Shown one piece after another: positions 33,801 to 51,129 of a stretch of 64,000 bases of DNA. The position numbers are program-made. Origin of the DNA: Candidatus Lambdaproteobacteria bacterium RIFOXYD2_FULL_56_26 (GTDB lineage Bacteria; SAR324; XYD2-FULL-50-16). The stretch covers positions 122,393 to 186,392 of the forward strand of contig MFNF01000001.1 of NCBI GenBank assembly GCA_001783715.1. Direction: 5' to 3'. Position 1 is the first letter of the stretch, and every line of letters starts with the position of its first letter.

Positions 33801-36800
33801 CAGCAGCTTCCTGCAAACCCGTGTGCCGGGTCGGATCGGTTGCGTTTTTGAGGCGATCTATTTCTCCCGGCCCGACAGCCTCCAACGAGGGGAATCTTTC
33901 CAAGCGCTGCGGGAGCGGATGGGCCGGGAGCTCTTTTTGGAAGCCCCGGTGGAGGCCGACTTGGTGACTGCGGTGCCCAAGGGCGGAATTCCGGCGGCCA
34001 TTGGCTTTGCCAAGGCCTCGGGCTTGCCCTACAACGTGGCCATCCTGGAAGAGCCCTCGACCGGCGGGCTACGGAGCTTTACCACCAATCCCCAAGACCG
34101 TATGGCCTTGGCCAAGATGAAGTACAGCATCCTTCGGGACATGGTCGAAGGGCAAAGGGTGGTAGTGGTGGACGACTCGATCGTCCGGGGGACCACCGCC
34201 AAACTGCTGGTCAAAAGTCTGTACGAAAACGGAGCCAAGGAAGTCCACTTGCGGATCCCCTGCCCGCCCTACAACTGGCCTTGCCATTATGGAATCGAAA
34301 CCAAAGACCCCAAGACCTTGATAAGCCACGGGAAAACCAACGACGAAATCTGTGCGGCCCTGGGAGCCGATTCCCTGTATTACCTGGGGATTGAAGGACT
34401 GTACCGGGCGATTCGCCAGGAACGAGGGCTGTTTTGCGACGAATGTCTTTCGGGGCGGACTCCGTTTTCCGTTGAGGTTTGAGCAGGTTGGAGGCGGGGG
34501 TATCCCGAAAAGGGGTGGATCAAACGGGGACGGTTGTTCTTTAGAGGAACTTGTAGTCTTGCTCCTTGCCTCTTCTTTGGTTTTAGGCCAGTCTAGGAAC
34601 AGAAAGAAAAACTCAAACATCGTTCTATTTCCATAAGCCCTGTTTGGCTATGGGTTTGGCGTGGAACGTGGAGTTTTTTTCATCAGACCTGTGCCGAAGG
34701 TTTGCCAAAAAGTTTTTTTTTCGCTACCTTCGGACCGATTCTGGAAACTTGGCCCTGGAGCTGCGGTTTCCCTTGGAGAGTTAAGGACCAAAACCACCTT
34801 TTGGGAAGAGACCCTATGTTGCTTCAATTCGGCATCGCCTTTGCCGTCATTGGTTTTATGGCCGCCTTCATCGGCCTAAACCTAGTGGTGGCCAAGTTGC
34901 TCAGCCCCTCCAACCCGTCGGCGGGAAAATCGGTTCCCTACGACTGCGGTGAAGCTCCGGTCGGGGTTGGGTACCGGCAGTACAACCTCCGCTTTTATTT
35001 GGTGGCACTGGTCTTTGTGATCTTCGACGTGGAGATTGCCTTCATGTACCCGGTAACCGCTATTTTTAAGGACCTGACCTTGGAAGGTTGGGGCGGGTTG
35101 GCCTTCGCAGAGATCCTGATTTTTGTGGCAATTTTGACTGCCGGGTTTGTGTACTCTTGGAAGGAAGGTGGTTTGGATTGGGTTAGAGAACAAATCGGAG
35201 CGGTGAAGGGGGCGAAATGAACAACCTGTTACACAAGTTTGAGGACGACGGGATTGTTCTGACCACCGTTGACCACCTGCTCAACCTGACCAGGGCGAAC
35301 AGCCTGTTTTTTATGTTGTTTGGCCTCGCCTGCTGCGGGATCGAGATGATGCAATCGGGTGGCCCCAGAGCCGACCTGGACCGCTTTGGTGTGGTCCCCC
35401 GGGCTTCACCCCGCCAGTCGGACCTGATGATCGTCGCCGGGACGGTGACCCTCAAGATGGCCAGCCGGGTCAAGGTTTTGTACGACCAAATGCCCGAACC
35501 CAAGTACGTGATCTCCATGGGCAGTTGCTCCAACACCGGCGGTTTGTTCCAAGGGGGCTATTCTGTGCTCCACGGGGTGGACCGGGTGATTCCGGTGGAC
35601 GTTTATTTGCCCGGTTGCCCGCCTCGGCCGGAGGCTTTGACAGCCGCAATCATTGCCATCCAAAAGAAGATCAAAGCCGAAAAATACCTGCGCAAGTAAC
35701 AACGGCAAAAGGTTTAGAGGAGCCGCCTTGGAACAGAAAAGTATTTTTGAAGCCCTACAGTCCAAAACCCAGCTCCCCTTGGAGTGGGTCGAGGATGCCT
35801 ACGGGCCGAAGCTGAAGATTGCCCCGCAAGACTTGGTAGCGGTACTAACCTTGCTCAAAAATGACTCGGCCTTGGGTTTTGACTGTTTGACCAACCAAAC
35901 CGGCAGCCACATGGACCCGGTGATCCGGCTCTATTACGTACTTTATTCCTACCTCCACCACCATGAACTGGTGGTGTTTTGCGAAGTCCCGGTCGGGGCC
36001 CCGGTGGTGAATTCGGTGGTGGGCCTCTTTGGTGGGGCCAATTGGTTGGAACGGGAAACCTTCGACCTGTTGGGGGTCAAGTTCACCGGGCACCCGGACC
36101 TCACCAGGATCATGTTGCCCGAAGACTGGGTCGGCCACCCGTTGCGCAAAGACTACGTCTATGTGCAGGAGTACAACGGGATCGATAACCGGCCTTCGGA
36201 AATCACCAAAAGCTTCCAGCCTTCTTAAGGGAACGAACTCATGGGCAAACAGTTACGTACCGAATTGATGACCATCAACATGGGTCCGCAGCATCCCTCG
36301 ACCCATGGGGTAATCCGGTTCATCATCAAAACGGACGGCGAAGTCATCCATGAATGCCAGCCAGATGTTGGCTACCTGCACCGTTCCATCGAAAAAATCT
36401 CCGAAAAGGTAAATTGGCAGGGTTTTGTCCCCTTTACGGATCGGGTGGACTACTTGGCCTCGATGAACGCCAACTGGGCCTATTGTTTCGCCGTCGAGCG
36501 GATGTTGGGCACCGAAGTCCCCCGGCGGGCGGAGTTTCTGCGGGTCATGGTCGGCGAATTGAACCGAATCTCCAGTCACTTGATTGCCATTGGGGCAACC
36601 GCCATGGACCTGGGCGGCTTTACCCCCTTCATCCAGTTGCTGCGGGAACGGGAGTACATCAACGACCTCTTGGAAATGGCTTGTGGGGCTAGGCTCACCT
36701 ACAATTACATCTCCATCGGCGGGGTCAATTACGACGTGCCCCGGAACTGGACCGAAAAGGTCGGCGAGTTCCTGGAACACTTTGAACTGGCCATGGAACA

Positions 36801-48800: not shown

Positions 48801-51129
48801 GCCCGACTTTGGCTTGGGCCTTCGGGGAAACCATGATCATGGACCATGCCCGCAGGTCGGTTTTGCCCGAGCGGTTGGTGGACGCACTCTTGAGCGGCAA
48901 GGGGATCAGCCATGACGACTATTGGGACTTTACCCACTTCACCGATGCCTTGATGAGCGACCAGGAAGTCTTGGAGTTGCCCAAGGTTTGGGCGATTGGT
49001 GGCGACGGTGCCATGGGCGACATTGGCTTCCAGAACCTTTCCAAGGTGGTGTTGCAAAACCGGCCCAACGTCAAGTGCTTGATGCTTGATACCCAGGTTT
49101 ATTCCAACACCGGCGGCCAAAACTCCGATTCTTCGGTGATGCCCGGCGGGTTCGACATGAACCAGTTCGGCAAAGCCACCGAAGGCAAGTTGATCGAACG
49201 AAAAGAGGTGACCTCCATCCTGATGAGCGGTCACGGCAGCCCTTTCATTGCCCAGGTCTCGATGGCCAACTCGTCGAGCCTGTACAAGGCGGTTTTGGAC
49301 GCAGTGGCTTACCGTGGAACTGCCTACATCCAGAGCTTCACCACCTGTCAGCCCGAGCATGGTGTACCGGACAACGTGTCCACCCAGCAGGCTCAACTGG
49401 TCCGGGATTCTCGGGGGATGCCGGAATTGGTCTTTAACCCCGGCCTTGGGGAGACCTACCCGGAAGCTTTGGTGTTAAAAGGCAACCCCAACCCCAAACG
49501 GGACTGGTACCAAAAGAAGGATCCGGAAGGAAAGCCCTACAATTTCACCGTCGCCCATTGGGCCACGACCGAGGCTCGGTTCCGCAAACACTTCTTTACC
49601 GTCAAACCGGGAGAGGAAGCGGGGCTGGTTCACCTGGACGTGATTTTGGGTCGTGTTGCCCAAGACGACGTGGTCCATCGCCGGTTCTATGAGCCCAGCC
49701 ACCCTGCCTTTATTCCGGCCAAAGGGGTTTATATCCTGATGGAGAAAAAGGGCAAAATGGTGCCGATGGGGATCAGTCGCCAGCTGGTTCTGTTTTGCAT
49801 CGAACGGCGGAAGAACTGGCGGATGCTGCAAAGCATGGCGGGGGTCGAGAACGAAGACTACCGGGCCCAGCGGGCCAACCGGCCAAAACCGGCGGCAGAA
49901 GCGGAATAATCCCAAAGGGGGCCTACCAAGGCCCCTTTTTTTTTGCCCAAAAACAAAGAGAGTTCCAAGGGCCAACGGCTGGGGGTAAAGGGGGCAAAGC
50001 CCCCTTTGCAGGATTGTAGAGGGGGAGCAAAACAAACCGGCAGCAGCAGCGGTATGCCCCCCAAAAGGGGCCTACCAAAGGCCCTAGCTCATGGTGATAA
50101 GGCCTGCACCGCAGGGGCCCAATCAATCCCCCTGTAAGCCCTAAAAACCCAGCCAAAACACCAGGAAAAACAAAATCAACAGAGGTTGGTAAAGGAACGG
50201 GCTATTTCTCCATTCCCTCTTGCGCCTTGGCCTTGGCCTTGTCCAGCTCTTCCTGGGCTTTGCTCAAACCGGTCTGGGCTCGGTTCTTGGCTTGGTCCAG
50301 ATTCTCCTGGGCGGTGGCCTTGGCTTTCTCAACGGTATCGTTGGCCTTACTCAGCACTTTTTCTCCAGAGTAGAGCAGGTCGTCGTATTGCTTCTTCAGT
50401 TTCCCCAAGGGTTTTTCAAACTGCTTGCCCAAGATGGCCAGGGGCTTCTCCAACAACACTCCGATCAACCGCCCGACAAAAACCGACCATTCCATGACCT
50501 GGACGGAGGCCTTGAGTCCTACATACCCCCAAGCTTCCTTGCGGGAGAACTTCATCACCTTCCACTCATCGTCATTAAAACCGGTGCTGTTGAGGGTCAC
50601 TTGGCCGGACAGGCCGCAGCCGTAGAGGCTGAAGGTGCCTGCTTTGCACTTGTCTTGGAAGGCTTCGCTCAGGTAGGTGGCACAAAGAAAACGGCCGGGC
50701 TTGGGGCCGATGTCAAGGGTGGATTCCACCAAGCAATGGTAGGTACCTTCCCTTTGGCAGGTAACACAAAAACGCTGGTCGTTGGCTTCAACAACGCCGG
50801 CCCAACCGCTGACGGCCAAAAGGAAAAGGAAAAACAGCGCTTTCACCGGGTCCTCGTAAGATTTGGCCTATCCTAACCTGCTCTCAAGGGAGCCGTCAAT
50901 TGCGCCCCAAAAAGAAGCAAACCGGTTGATTTAACAGGGGGCATTTTGGGTAGAGATGCAATAGCCTTGCCTCTGGCCTCAGGAAAGTTGGTTTGTGTGC
51001 CCTATCAGCCGGGGCGGAAAGTCTGGGGGATTTGGAAGGACCGGGAAAAACAGGAAGGAGAAAAACGTAAGAGAGCCGAGCCAAAGCTCGGCCCTCTTTT
51101 GGGCCTAGGGGTGCCTTAACCTTGGTTTA

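Follow-up and report, generated by a model that had tools for sequence, protein, structure and literature searches.

A complex I operon without nuoEFG followed by a long single-chain PFOR-type gene in a SAR324 bacterium: likely partners at the ferredoxin level

The window, a 64,000-nucleotide stretch of the 97% complete genome of Candidatus Lambdaproteobacteria bacterium RIFOXYD2_FULL_56_26 (named G000), includes on its plus strand purF, nuoA-D, nuoH-N, and a gene for a 1528-amino-acid single-chain protein of the PFOR type, in this order. The 11 nuo genes (A, B, C, D, H, I, J, K, L, M, and N) form one plus-strand string (34816-45195), and nuoEFG are absent within the operon. A preliminary description of the locus had reported this nuo operon and the enzyme gene behind it, and both were seen here. 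The gap between them, given there as 80 bp, measures 127 bp to the ATG of the enzyme gene and 100 bp to an upstream TTG. The features of the locus are:

33007..34482, plus strand, purF, amidophosphoribosyltransferase (TIGR01134, E 1e-92)
34816..35220, plus strand, nuoA (PF00507; ATG at 34816)
35217..35699, plus strand, nuoB (NF005012 and TIGR01957 above cut-off)
35653..36228, plus strand, nuoC (PF00329; real start probably several codons further downstream)
36241..37362, plus strand, nuoD of the short, 373-aa type (PF00346; best model PRK12322)
37375..38622, plus strand, nuoH (NF004741 above cut-off)
38624..39259, plus strand, nuoI, two [4Fe-4S] motifs that flank a loop rich in Lys/Arg (net +6)
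39016..39777 (ORF bounds), plus strand, nuoJ (PF00499; real start probably right behind the nuoI stop)
39774..40085, plus strand, nuoK (NF004320 above cut-off)
40117..42195, plus strand, nuoL (TIGR01974 above cut-off)
42232..43740, plus strand, nuoM, single copy (TIGR01972 above cut-off)
43768..45195, plus strand, nuoN (TIGR01770 above cut-off)
45218..45247, plus strand, promoter-like site TTGACT-18-TAGAAT (sigma-70-like) in the nuoN-PFOR spacer, from a motif scan
45323 (ATG)..49909, plus strand, long PFOR-type gene, 1528 aa (POR_N, PFOR_II, POR, Fer4, and TPP_C domains)
47678..47710, plus strand, cubane motif 1, C786-C796, unchanged in all 74 homologs aligned
48077..48109, plus strand, cubane motif 2, C919-C929, parted from motif 1 by a 120-aa stretch with a helical insertion
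49914..49949, plus strand, terminator-like hairpin of the intrinsic type (11-pair stem) and T run, 3' of the PFOR gene

The product of the nuo operon is an 11-subunit complex I that lacks NuoEFG. Its nuoD is the only NuoD-like gene of G000 and lacks CxxC pairs, hence Ni ligands, which sets it apart from the group 4 hydrogenases; the one [NiFe] motif pair of the genome belongs to another gene. Nor is this a 2M complex I, as G000 and every relative mapped have one nuoM. Profile searches found no canonical NuoG elsewhere in G000. The absence of the NuoG-type 4Fe-4S domain claimed previously holds insofar as PF10588 has no match in this genome, but this blank understates the NuoG-like domains: the NuoEF-like module said to lie elsewhere was found on contig C39, and its large subunit has NuoG-like Fe-S domains and matches TIGR01973 (E 7.6e-49, below cut-off). 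This module, which holds the only NuoF-family gene of G000, has the Nfn-Bfu/Stn order of NuoE-like, HydB/NuoF-like, and Fe-S plus GltD-like subunits, and its nearest structures are 9bov, 9n5u, and 8oh5.

The long enzyme has the alpha, gamma, delta, and beta domains of the 2-oxoacid:ferredoxin oxidoreductase superfamily, a GDG TPP motif, and three [4Fe-4S] sites. Two of the sites are the cubane motifs, which had been recognized before with starts at 785 and 918 rather than at C786 and C919; the third (C1002, C1005, C1135, and C1342) was absent from that description. A structure model covers residues 470-1528 with a pLDDT of 85.6, and the best fold match of the enzyme is the PFOR 6cin (E 3e-25). 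Alignment to two single-chain PFORs, 6cin (Moorella thermoacetica) and 1b0p (Desulfovibrio africanus), places T38 (YPITP), E69, R121 (VAARA), and N1262 (YSNTGGQ) on the corresponding residues of these proteins; we take T38, R121, and N1262 to be pyruvate-binding and E69 to be activating. These two NifJ-type proteins, the type to which the nearest solved structures belong, share with the long enzyme the domain order, the three cluster sites, the TPP motif, and the active-site T/E/R/N, but the identity is 17-28% and the long enzyme exceeds them by about 350 residues, which lie in helical insertions and in an extension of the C terminus. The insertions show 97-100% occupancy in 57 homologs that are not linked to nuo genes, and the first one is the least conserved part of the protein (42% identity versus 70-81% in the cores, eight linked rows). 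A motif scan of 142 long proteins detected no C-terminal ferredoxin. The long enzyme does not reach the cut-off of TIGR02176, the model of NifJ-type homodimeric PFORs (344 versus 911 bits), and beside the active site it has NVHCGHDD where 6cin and 1b0p have SIFGDH, so that another 2-oxoacid is possible as substrate. The enzyme is likely PFOR-like in function but belongs to a subfamily separate from the NifJ type, one that is widespread (about 600 GTDB contigs matched). Since no PDH was found in G000 and the other such enzyme is KorAB only, the 1528-aa protein is likely the pyruvate:ferredoxin oxidoreductase of this genome and its only one; a 2-oxoacid dehydrogenase E2 was found neither in G000 nor in six of the seven linked relatives. 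A third POR_N match in G000 (C19, E 3e-6), judged by its sequence and neighbours to be an acetolactate synthase, was not counted.

The preliminary description had the nuo genes run straight into the enzyme gene. This is doubtful, because the best promoter-like site of the surrounding 18.3 kb (32900-51200) sits in the gap, with a score of 10/12 that was reached by 5 of 1000 shuffled sequences. A similar site lies 55-80 bp ahead of the start codon in six of seven family spacers, a count taken by motif scan, the hexamers being out of register in the DNA alignment of six spacers; hairpin-T runs precede the promoter footprint in G006, G010, and G013. A predicted sigma-70-like promoter of its own is therefore a likely property of the PFOR gene. 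The site is absent from the spacer of G022, where the gap is 37 bp, and from the region ahead of a NifJ gene that follows nuoN in G001, and co-transcription is consequently likely in those two genomes. No sequencing record that matches the locus is labelled as RNA. Contigs assembled from the runs of one study, which are probably DNA, cover the PFOR gene in places from 45244 onward; none of the 16 pieces listed, of 44, bridges nuoN and the PFOR gene, and we draw no conclusion from this.

Ten of 18 family relatives and one of five other members of the order (G022) have the long enzyme gene, with 58-79% identity; the identities agree with those given before, while the count of 11 of 16 family genomes does not. 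The gene follows nuoN in seven of these 11 relatives, six of the ten in the family plus G022, with gaps of 37-546 bp. The adjacency is thus recurrent as had been stated, although not at the earlier frequency of four of five. In G009, G015, G017, and G018 purF is followed by the PFOR gene with no nuo genes between, and in G001, G004, G008, G011, G012, G014, and G016 the headless complex is present and the long enzyme was not found. With the pair split in four of the 11 relatives that have the gene, and the gene not found in seven of the 17 family genomes with the complex (present in ten, adjacent in six), the data do not support the genetically fixed unit that had been proposed, and the enzyme is not always co-inherited with the complex in the manner of a docking head such as FpoF or NuoEFG. 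As a synteny control, the functionally unrelated purF precedes nuoA or the PFOR gene in all 11 relatives that have the latter. The slot behind nuoN can also hold a different enzyme: in G001 a canonical NifJ (TIGR02176, 1688 bits, cut-off 911), 25% identical to the long enzyme, lies 126 bp behind nuoN, and in G008 a NifJ gene lies about 7.4 kb behind it. In the tree, both genomes are nested within the group that carries the long enzyme in that slot. In G011 nuoN and NifJ are each close to contig ends, which do not overlap.

Outside the family, nuoN adjoins the enzyme gene in two (L044 and L171) of the 129 loci with at least 1.5 kb of upstream sequence, and in L174 nuoN lies 2.6 kb away; L171 and L174 are counted by nuoN proximity, with or without nuoEFG in their operons. 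A single clade of linked enzymes was rejected (p-AU 3e-57), and two further independent links have a rough chance of 0.0005-0.0035 when gene counts are assumed. Chance alone does not account for the link, as it recurs in two unrelated lineages besides its own. Trees were quick trees and FastTree trees; 31 Acidobacteriaceae-like loci and duplicates were dropped from one set of rows, and subsets of 52 and 23 rows were used in other analyses. A sister clade of the enzyme (L020-L024) is encoded inside rnf operons, between rnfB and rnfC. In the Fibrobacteria the enzyme was found in one of 40 genomes (G043), with no nuo gene in its 984 bp of upstream sequence; G117, with no nuo gene within 7.5 kb, and G099, with 735 bp upstream only, were left out of the counts.

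G000 encodes two single-cluster ferredoxins (net charge -13) away from the nuo operon, one of them on contig C48. A close homolog of the small acidic ferredoxin is present in all 18 family genomes and in G022, and a free-standing gene for one was found in none of 21 other genomes searched. The headless type of NuoD occurs in 17 of the 18 family genomes and in G022, so the ferredoxin tracks the complex better than the long enzyme does, a co-occurrence that may merely mark the lineage, as these relatives are not independent. Among the 19 NuoI rows parsed, 18 have a loop with a net charge between +2 and +7; this loop is likely a candidate ferredoxin docking site. Rnf, an Ech-type complex, PntB, flavodoxin, and a second NuoD-like complex were all not found in G000, and Na+-NQR, for NADH:quinone transfer, is complete. 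Menaquinone is the presumed quinone, although the MqnC-like gene scores slightly below cut-off (399 versus 428) and classical men genes were not found in G000. EtfAB genes, a possible bifurcating source of reduced ferredoxin, are located on contig C14.

The rTCA markers of G000 include a type II-like ATP citrate lyase (an AclB with PF16114 above cut-off adjoining a 907-aa AclA-like gene), KorAB, two SDH/FRD, FumA, AcnB, and SucCD. The genome thereby has the genes expected of an rTCA autotroph, namely a citrate-cleaving enzyme, OGOR, PFOR, and fumarate reductase (the two SdhA/FrdA loci), besides a citrate synthase gene and nitrogenase genes. Together with the missing Rnf, PntB, flavodoxin, and second NuoD-like complex, these markers make reverse flow through complex I a fair hypothesis. 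For G000, the earlier proposal that such a flow serves the rTCA cycle is plausible, although it would be energetically marginal with one NuoM, and it is not general: G022, G001, and G041 keep the link, have heme-copper oxidase-family genes, and yielded no citrate lyase. In G022 (1.6 Mb, 86% complete) NuoF, E2, and the Nfn module were not found either, and this linked relative with an oxidase-family gene points to forward use.

Given that the link is seen in three lineages and persists where another enzyme has taken the slot, complex I and the PFOR are likely partners at the ferredoxin level. Our preferred reading, which we consider probable, is that they share a soluble ferredoxin pool and do not form one fixed complex. 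They would exchange electrons through the small acidic ferredoxin encoded elsewhere, and their genes would sit together because both draw on that one pool. In the forward direction, likely the ancestral use, electrons would pass from pyruvate to ferredoxin, which may bind the basic loop of NuoI, and then through complex I to menaquinone with proton pumping. During autotrophy the flow might be reversed, with the reduction of ferredoxin by menaquinol paid by the proton-motive force and the ferredoxin then driving CO2 fixation by PFOR and KorAB; for G000 we see the arguments for and against such a reversal as about evenly balanced. Pyruvate as substrate, menaquinone as quinone, ferredoxin binding by the NuoI loop, and the separate promoter are here inferred.

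The long PFOR could instead dock on NuoI/NuoC in place of NuoEFG and pass on electrons from its own cubanes, so that the proton-motive force drives pyruvate synthesis from acetyl-CoA and CO2 within one complex and menaquinol is wired to the carboxylating site through at least five clusters, without a soluble carrier. Adjacency in G000 and seven further genomes of its order, as well as in two lineages outside it, would fit such a head, as would the short gap in G022 and the large helical insertions missing from NifJ, one of them between the cubanes, which could form a surface. The same insertions, however, are equally present in unlinked homologs, the first being the least conserved; a NifJ without them occupies the slot; the PFOR gene has its own promoter-like site; and in 11 of the 17 family genomes with the complex the pair is split or the enzyme was not found. 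KorAB, nitrogenase, and the Nfn-type module presumably depend on ferredoxin as well, a demand that a fixed head would leave unserved, and the soluble ferredoxin fits the distribution of the complex better. We therefore do not retain the notion of a dedicated electron module and regard docking as very improbable. Equally improbable is the broader idea, which would take in the sister clade between rnfB and rnfC, that members of the long PFOR subfamily serve as docking heads on ion pumps, complex I here and Rnf there. It is similarly improbable that the C39 module docks to give an NADH/NADPH-linked complex I with the PFOR as a mere neighbour: the module does have NuoE, NuoF, and NuoG-like Fe-S domains and the sole NuoF-family gene, but it is nearest to soluble Nfn-Bfu/Stn transhydrogenases and not to NuoG (685 versus about 100 bits), no ortholog was found in the complex-bearing G001, G008, G011, and G022, and NADH:quinone transfer is already covered by Na+-NQR.

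Less remote, though still rather unlikely, is an adjacency that is simply inherited order, with another donor for the complex and the Nfn/Stn-type module handling the PFOR ferredoxin. The equally faithful purF, the 127 of 129 non-family loci without nuoN adjacency, the separate promoter- and terminator-like signals, and the presence of the C39-type module in all six linked relatives with citrate lyase favour it; replacement in situ and persistence beside purF are also expected from ordinary gene-order inertia. On the other hand, two further independent links and a different PFOR kept in the identical slot speak against it, G022 has the complex and no NuoF-like donor was found in it, and an Nfn route to reduced ferredoxin needs NADPH, with PntB not found.

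The sharing of a ferredoxin pool has precedents. In a published case of headless complex I NuoEFG are also missing, PFOR and ferredoxin are the proposed donors, and menaquinone is the acceptor; the partners were chosen there by co-expression and the ferredoxin gene is not close to that of PFOR, whereas here the PFOR adjoins nuoN, belongs to the long subfamily, and occurs in a host with rTCA genes. The part of the RBG-1 (Zixibacteria) report available to us describes an 11-subunit complex I clustered with NfnAB, Mvh/Hdr, PFOR, and OGOR and proposed to oxidize reduced ferredoxin, in a bigger cluster and with no citrate lyase (PMC3903129). Campylobacter jejuni complex I is reported to be fed by flavodoxin (as cited in PMC4453560 and PMC11238625), likewise a low-potential soluble carrier and not NADH, but that type keeps nuoG and atypical genes at the nuoEF position, and no flavodoxin was found in G000. 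For the Nitrospira 2M complex I and the Nitrospina NUO-2, the passages available propose reverse transport from quinol to ferredoxin for rTCA, the same job as in the preliminary description, with a second NuoM or extra clusters (PMC6606698, PMC3578206); the operon described here codes for a single NuoM and lacks extra subunits. In tubeworm symbionts, also rTCA organisms, rnf operons are co-transcribed with por (PMC6315080, supplement 1), so that PFOR genes stand beside an ion-pumping ferredoxin oxidoreductase, but Rnf couples ferredoxin to NAD, while the partner here is a quinone-linked complex I. A literature search, in which subscription papers were thinly covered, returned nothing on this arrangement or PFOR subfamily in SAR324. 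The concept of a PFOR feeding a headless complex I is already in print for other taxa, as a proposal that is unproven, and the present case would extend it.

The electron source of the 11-subunit complex I is a long-standing question, and no common donor emerged from a survey cited in PMC11238625. The candidates in this lineage are concrete, namely one PFOR, a single KorAB, and a small ferredoxin that matches the distribution of the complex. G022 looks like a minimal forward chain. The uncultured G000 seems to be an anaerobe that uses the rTCA cycle and fixes nitrogen; no Rnf, Ech-type, or Pnt route was found in it, and it would be a test case for whether a complex I with one NuoM can reduce ferredoxin from menaquinol.

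The window carries a headless complex I operon, located between purF and the gene for a long single-chain 2-oxoacid:ferredoxin oxidoreductase (long PFOR) as follows.

33007-34482, + strand: purF
34816-45195, + strand: nuoA, B, C, D, H, I, J, K, L, M and N in one string
45323 (ATG)-49909, + strand: long PFOR, a single ORF of 1528 amino acids

The locus is real, and its closest titled relatives are SAR324 or Candidatus Lambdaproteobacteria records. The distance from nuoN to the ATG of the oxidoreductase gene is 127 bp rather than the 80 bp of the preliminary description. The nuo string in the window lacks nuoEFG, a profile search of the genome (97% complete) gave no match to PF10588, and the NuoD-like locus of the window is the only one in that genome. 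A string of amtB, a TorF-family porin gene and a PII-like gene occupies positions 51127-53838 of the minus strand.

The alpha, gamma, delta and beta domains of 2-oxoacid:ferredoxin oxidoreductases are all found in one chain of the long PFOR. The nearest solved structures are the single-chain PFORs 6cin and 1b0p, both by sequence and by fold (predicted model of residues 470-1528, pLDDT 85.6). In all 74 homologs aligned, twelve cysteines for three clusters, a GDG motif and YSNTGGQ are conserved without exception. The protein scores under the NifJ family cut-off and is about 350 residues longer than the NifJ type, by insertions that are mostly helical. The subfamily occurs widely, with a relative encoded on 593 of the 609 GTDB stretches that matched, in records carrying labels such as Acidobacteriota, Planctomycetota and Bacteroidota. 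Since the only other superfamily enzyme in the genome is of the KorAB type, no PDH or OGDH subunits were found in it, and the active site matches, the long PFOR is likely its pyruvate enzyme.

The long PFOR gene is present in 10 of the 18 family relatives and in G022, a member of another family of the same order. It directly follows nuoN in G002, G003, G006, G007, G010, G013 and G022, and follows purF instead in G009, G015, G017 and G018; in these four the same headless operon is found at another place, followed by other genes or by the end of a contig. It was not found in G001, G004, G008, G011, G012, G014 and G016 (completeness 68-93%), all of which nevertheless include the headless operon. 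Complex I and the long PFOR are thus not the genetically fixed unit previously proposed, as the link is broken in four relatives and the gene was not found in seven. Because purF stays next to the block in all 11 relatives with the gene, adjacency alone is weak proof. The order purF-nuo-PFOR is likely ancestral, since G022 is outside the family, and was likely lost in one branch. Besides its headless operon, G018 includes another, complete complex I that has nuoEFG and is split into two divergent blocks (L125:1-10935), and G001 has a 145-amino acid clan AA aspartic protease-like gene between nuoM and nuoN (L140:5734-6171).

Even so, the link goes beyond chance. The gene located 126 bp 3' of nuoN in G001 encodes a canonical NifJ (single-chain PFOR, TIGR02176), 25% identical to the long PFOR, and in G008 NifJ lies about 7.4 kb 3' of nuoN. 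Because the NuoD proteins of both nest in a tree among those of genomes with the long enzyme, NifJ reads as a single in-place replacement. Among 135 homologous loci with at least 1.5 kb of upstream sequence, 129 of them non-family, nuoN was adjacent in six: four family loci, L044 (labelled Fibrobacteria; nuoA-BC-D-H to N, no nuoEFG, 203-bp gap) and the metagenome locus L171 (558-bp gap). At L174 nuoN is 2.6 kb from the long PFOR. The linked enzymes are scattered over different parts of the tree, and a single clade of them was rejected. The other 127 of the 129 non-family loci are not adjacent to nuoN; the rough chance of two matches in 129 is 0.0005-0.0035, with gene counts assumed and many loci being close kin. 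A sister clade of PFORs (31-47% identity) is found within rnfB-PFOR-rnfCDGEA operons, between rnfB and rnfC (L020:7167-19421, L021, L022, L023, L024, L143), and por is placed with rnf in tubeworm symbionts too, according to supplement 1 of PMC6315080.

The rnfB-PFOR-rnfCDGEA operon is absent from the genome of the window; in G002, G006 and G010 korAB comes next after it. The rnf slot of the comparison genome G041 holds a distant 1383-amino acid member (25% identity, L138:11769-15920), possibly a degenerate non-catalytic PFOR, in which Pfam and NCBIfam recognise solely the Fe-S motifs. Paralogs of 1700 amino acids are followed by a fused NfnAB-like gene at L144:5410-13593 and L145:8591-16657, that of L144 being over the PRK12779 cut-off. 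A long PFOR nesting in the window's own clade, in a record labelled Leptospiraceae (L028:6153-10850), has no nuo upstream; either the gene was transferred by itself or the record was misbinned.

The nuoN-PFOR spacer includes TTGACT-18-TAGAAT, the sigma-70-like site that scores highest in the 18.3-kb region. A similar site lies 55-80 bp 5' of the start in six of seven family spacers, which align poorly outside it; its score was reached by 5, 7, 32, 81, 46 and 34 of 1000 shuffles, respectively. A hairpin and T run precede the site in G006, G010 and G013. No such site was found near the start in G003, or in the spacers of G022 (37 bp) and G001. From this presence and absence, a separate promoter likely serves the long PFOR gene in the core family, and nuo and PFOR are likely co-transcribed in G022.

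The oxidoreductase had been proposed as the likely dedicated electron module of this complex I. This view is not favoured: its insertions show 97-100% occupancy in 57 unlinked homologs and the inter-cluster insertion is its least conserved region, so they are not a complex I adaptation. The two enzymes likely exchange electrons instead via a small soluble ferredoxin. The genome encodes two single-cluster ferredoxins (C1:460919 and C48:77305), each with a net charge of -13, and no flavodoxin was found in it. A small-ferredoxin homolog is present in all 18 family genomes and G022; in the other 21 genomes the sole match is weak and inside a sister PFOR, at the C-terminus of that of G031 (L143:9828-9992, 36%, E 8e-9), which might be a carrier fused to the enzyme but was not confirmed by a motif scan. 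Ferredoxin distribution fits the headless NuoD type better than the long PFOR does, and a basic loop lies between the NuoI clusters in 18 of the 19 rows parsed. As kin are not independent, the co-occurrence may be a mere lineage marker. The C48 ferredoxin gene and an mqnC-like gene of menaquinone biosynthesis lie tail to tail (C48:77305-78601), with similar closeness in G007.

The genome encodes a citrate lyase pair (type II-like ATP citrate lyase), KorAB, SucCD, two SDH/FRD, FumA, AcnB and PPDK, and also citrate synthase. Also encoded are nitrogenase, Nap, DsrAB with dsrD-, dsrT- and dsrMKJOP-like genes, DsrL-like, Sqr, Na+-NQR and a group 1-type uptake hydrogenase with cytochrome b. Neither a heme-copper nor a bd oxidase was found in it, nor were RnfC and PntB. 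By gene content (C43:101367-105491 and C61:17101-25730) the organism is an apparent anaerobic rTCA diazotroph within SAR324, and therefore needs reduced ferredoxin. A module on contig C39 is a transhydrogenase of the Nfn-Bfu/Stn type, a class described in PMC12018979 as reducing ferredoxin and NAD with electrons from NADPH. Its ortholog is present in six of six linked relatives with citrate lyase. That route depends on a supply of NADPH. The other candidate found in the genome for reducing ferredoxin is complex I run in reverse. Complex I with one NuoM moves 4 H+ per 2 electrons, menaquinone stands at -74 to -104 mV and proton-motive force at 150-200 mV. From these inputs, the lowest potential reachable in reverse is calculated as -374 to -504 mV. 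Low-potential ferredoxin is placed at -420 to -500 mV (PMC3578206), so reverse flow would be energetically marginal. The Nitrospira complex proposed for this task has a second NuoM (PMC6606698), whereas the window operon has one. Three genomes speak against a general rTCA role of the link: it is retained in G022, G001 and G041, none of which gave a citrate lyase. These three have oxidase-family genes; NuoF, E2 and the Nfn module were also not found in G022 (86% complete).

Partial complex I operons are common (PMC4453560), and a ferredoxin-fed headless complex I with PFOR as donor has been proposed for Desulfitobacterium (PMC11238625), RBG-1, where the genes are clustered (PMC3903129), Ignavibacterium and Saganbacteria (PMC3362086, PMC6349859). 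The Dsr genes of this lineage are described in PMC6018805, and PMC7117926 and PMC10482914 contributed nothing decisive. Our literature search returned no description of this arrangement, and Chadwick 2018 may cover related operons. What is new is an uncharacterised long PFOR subfamily recurrently placed after headless nuo, its apparent in-place replacement by NifJ, and a named ferredoxin candidate; complex I and the long PFOR are likely functional partners via ferredoxin.
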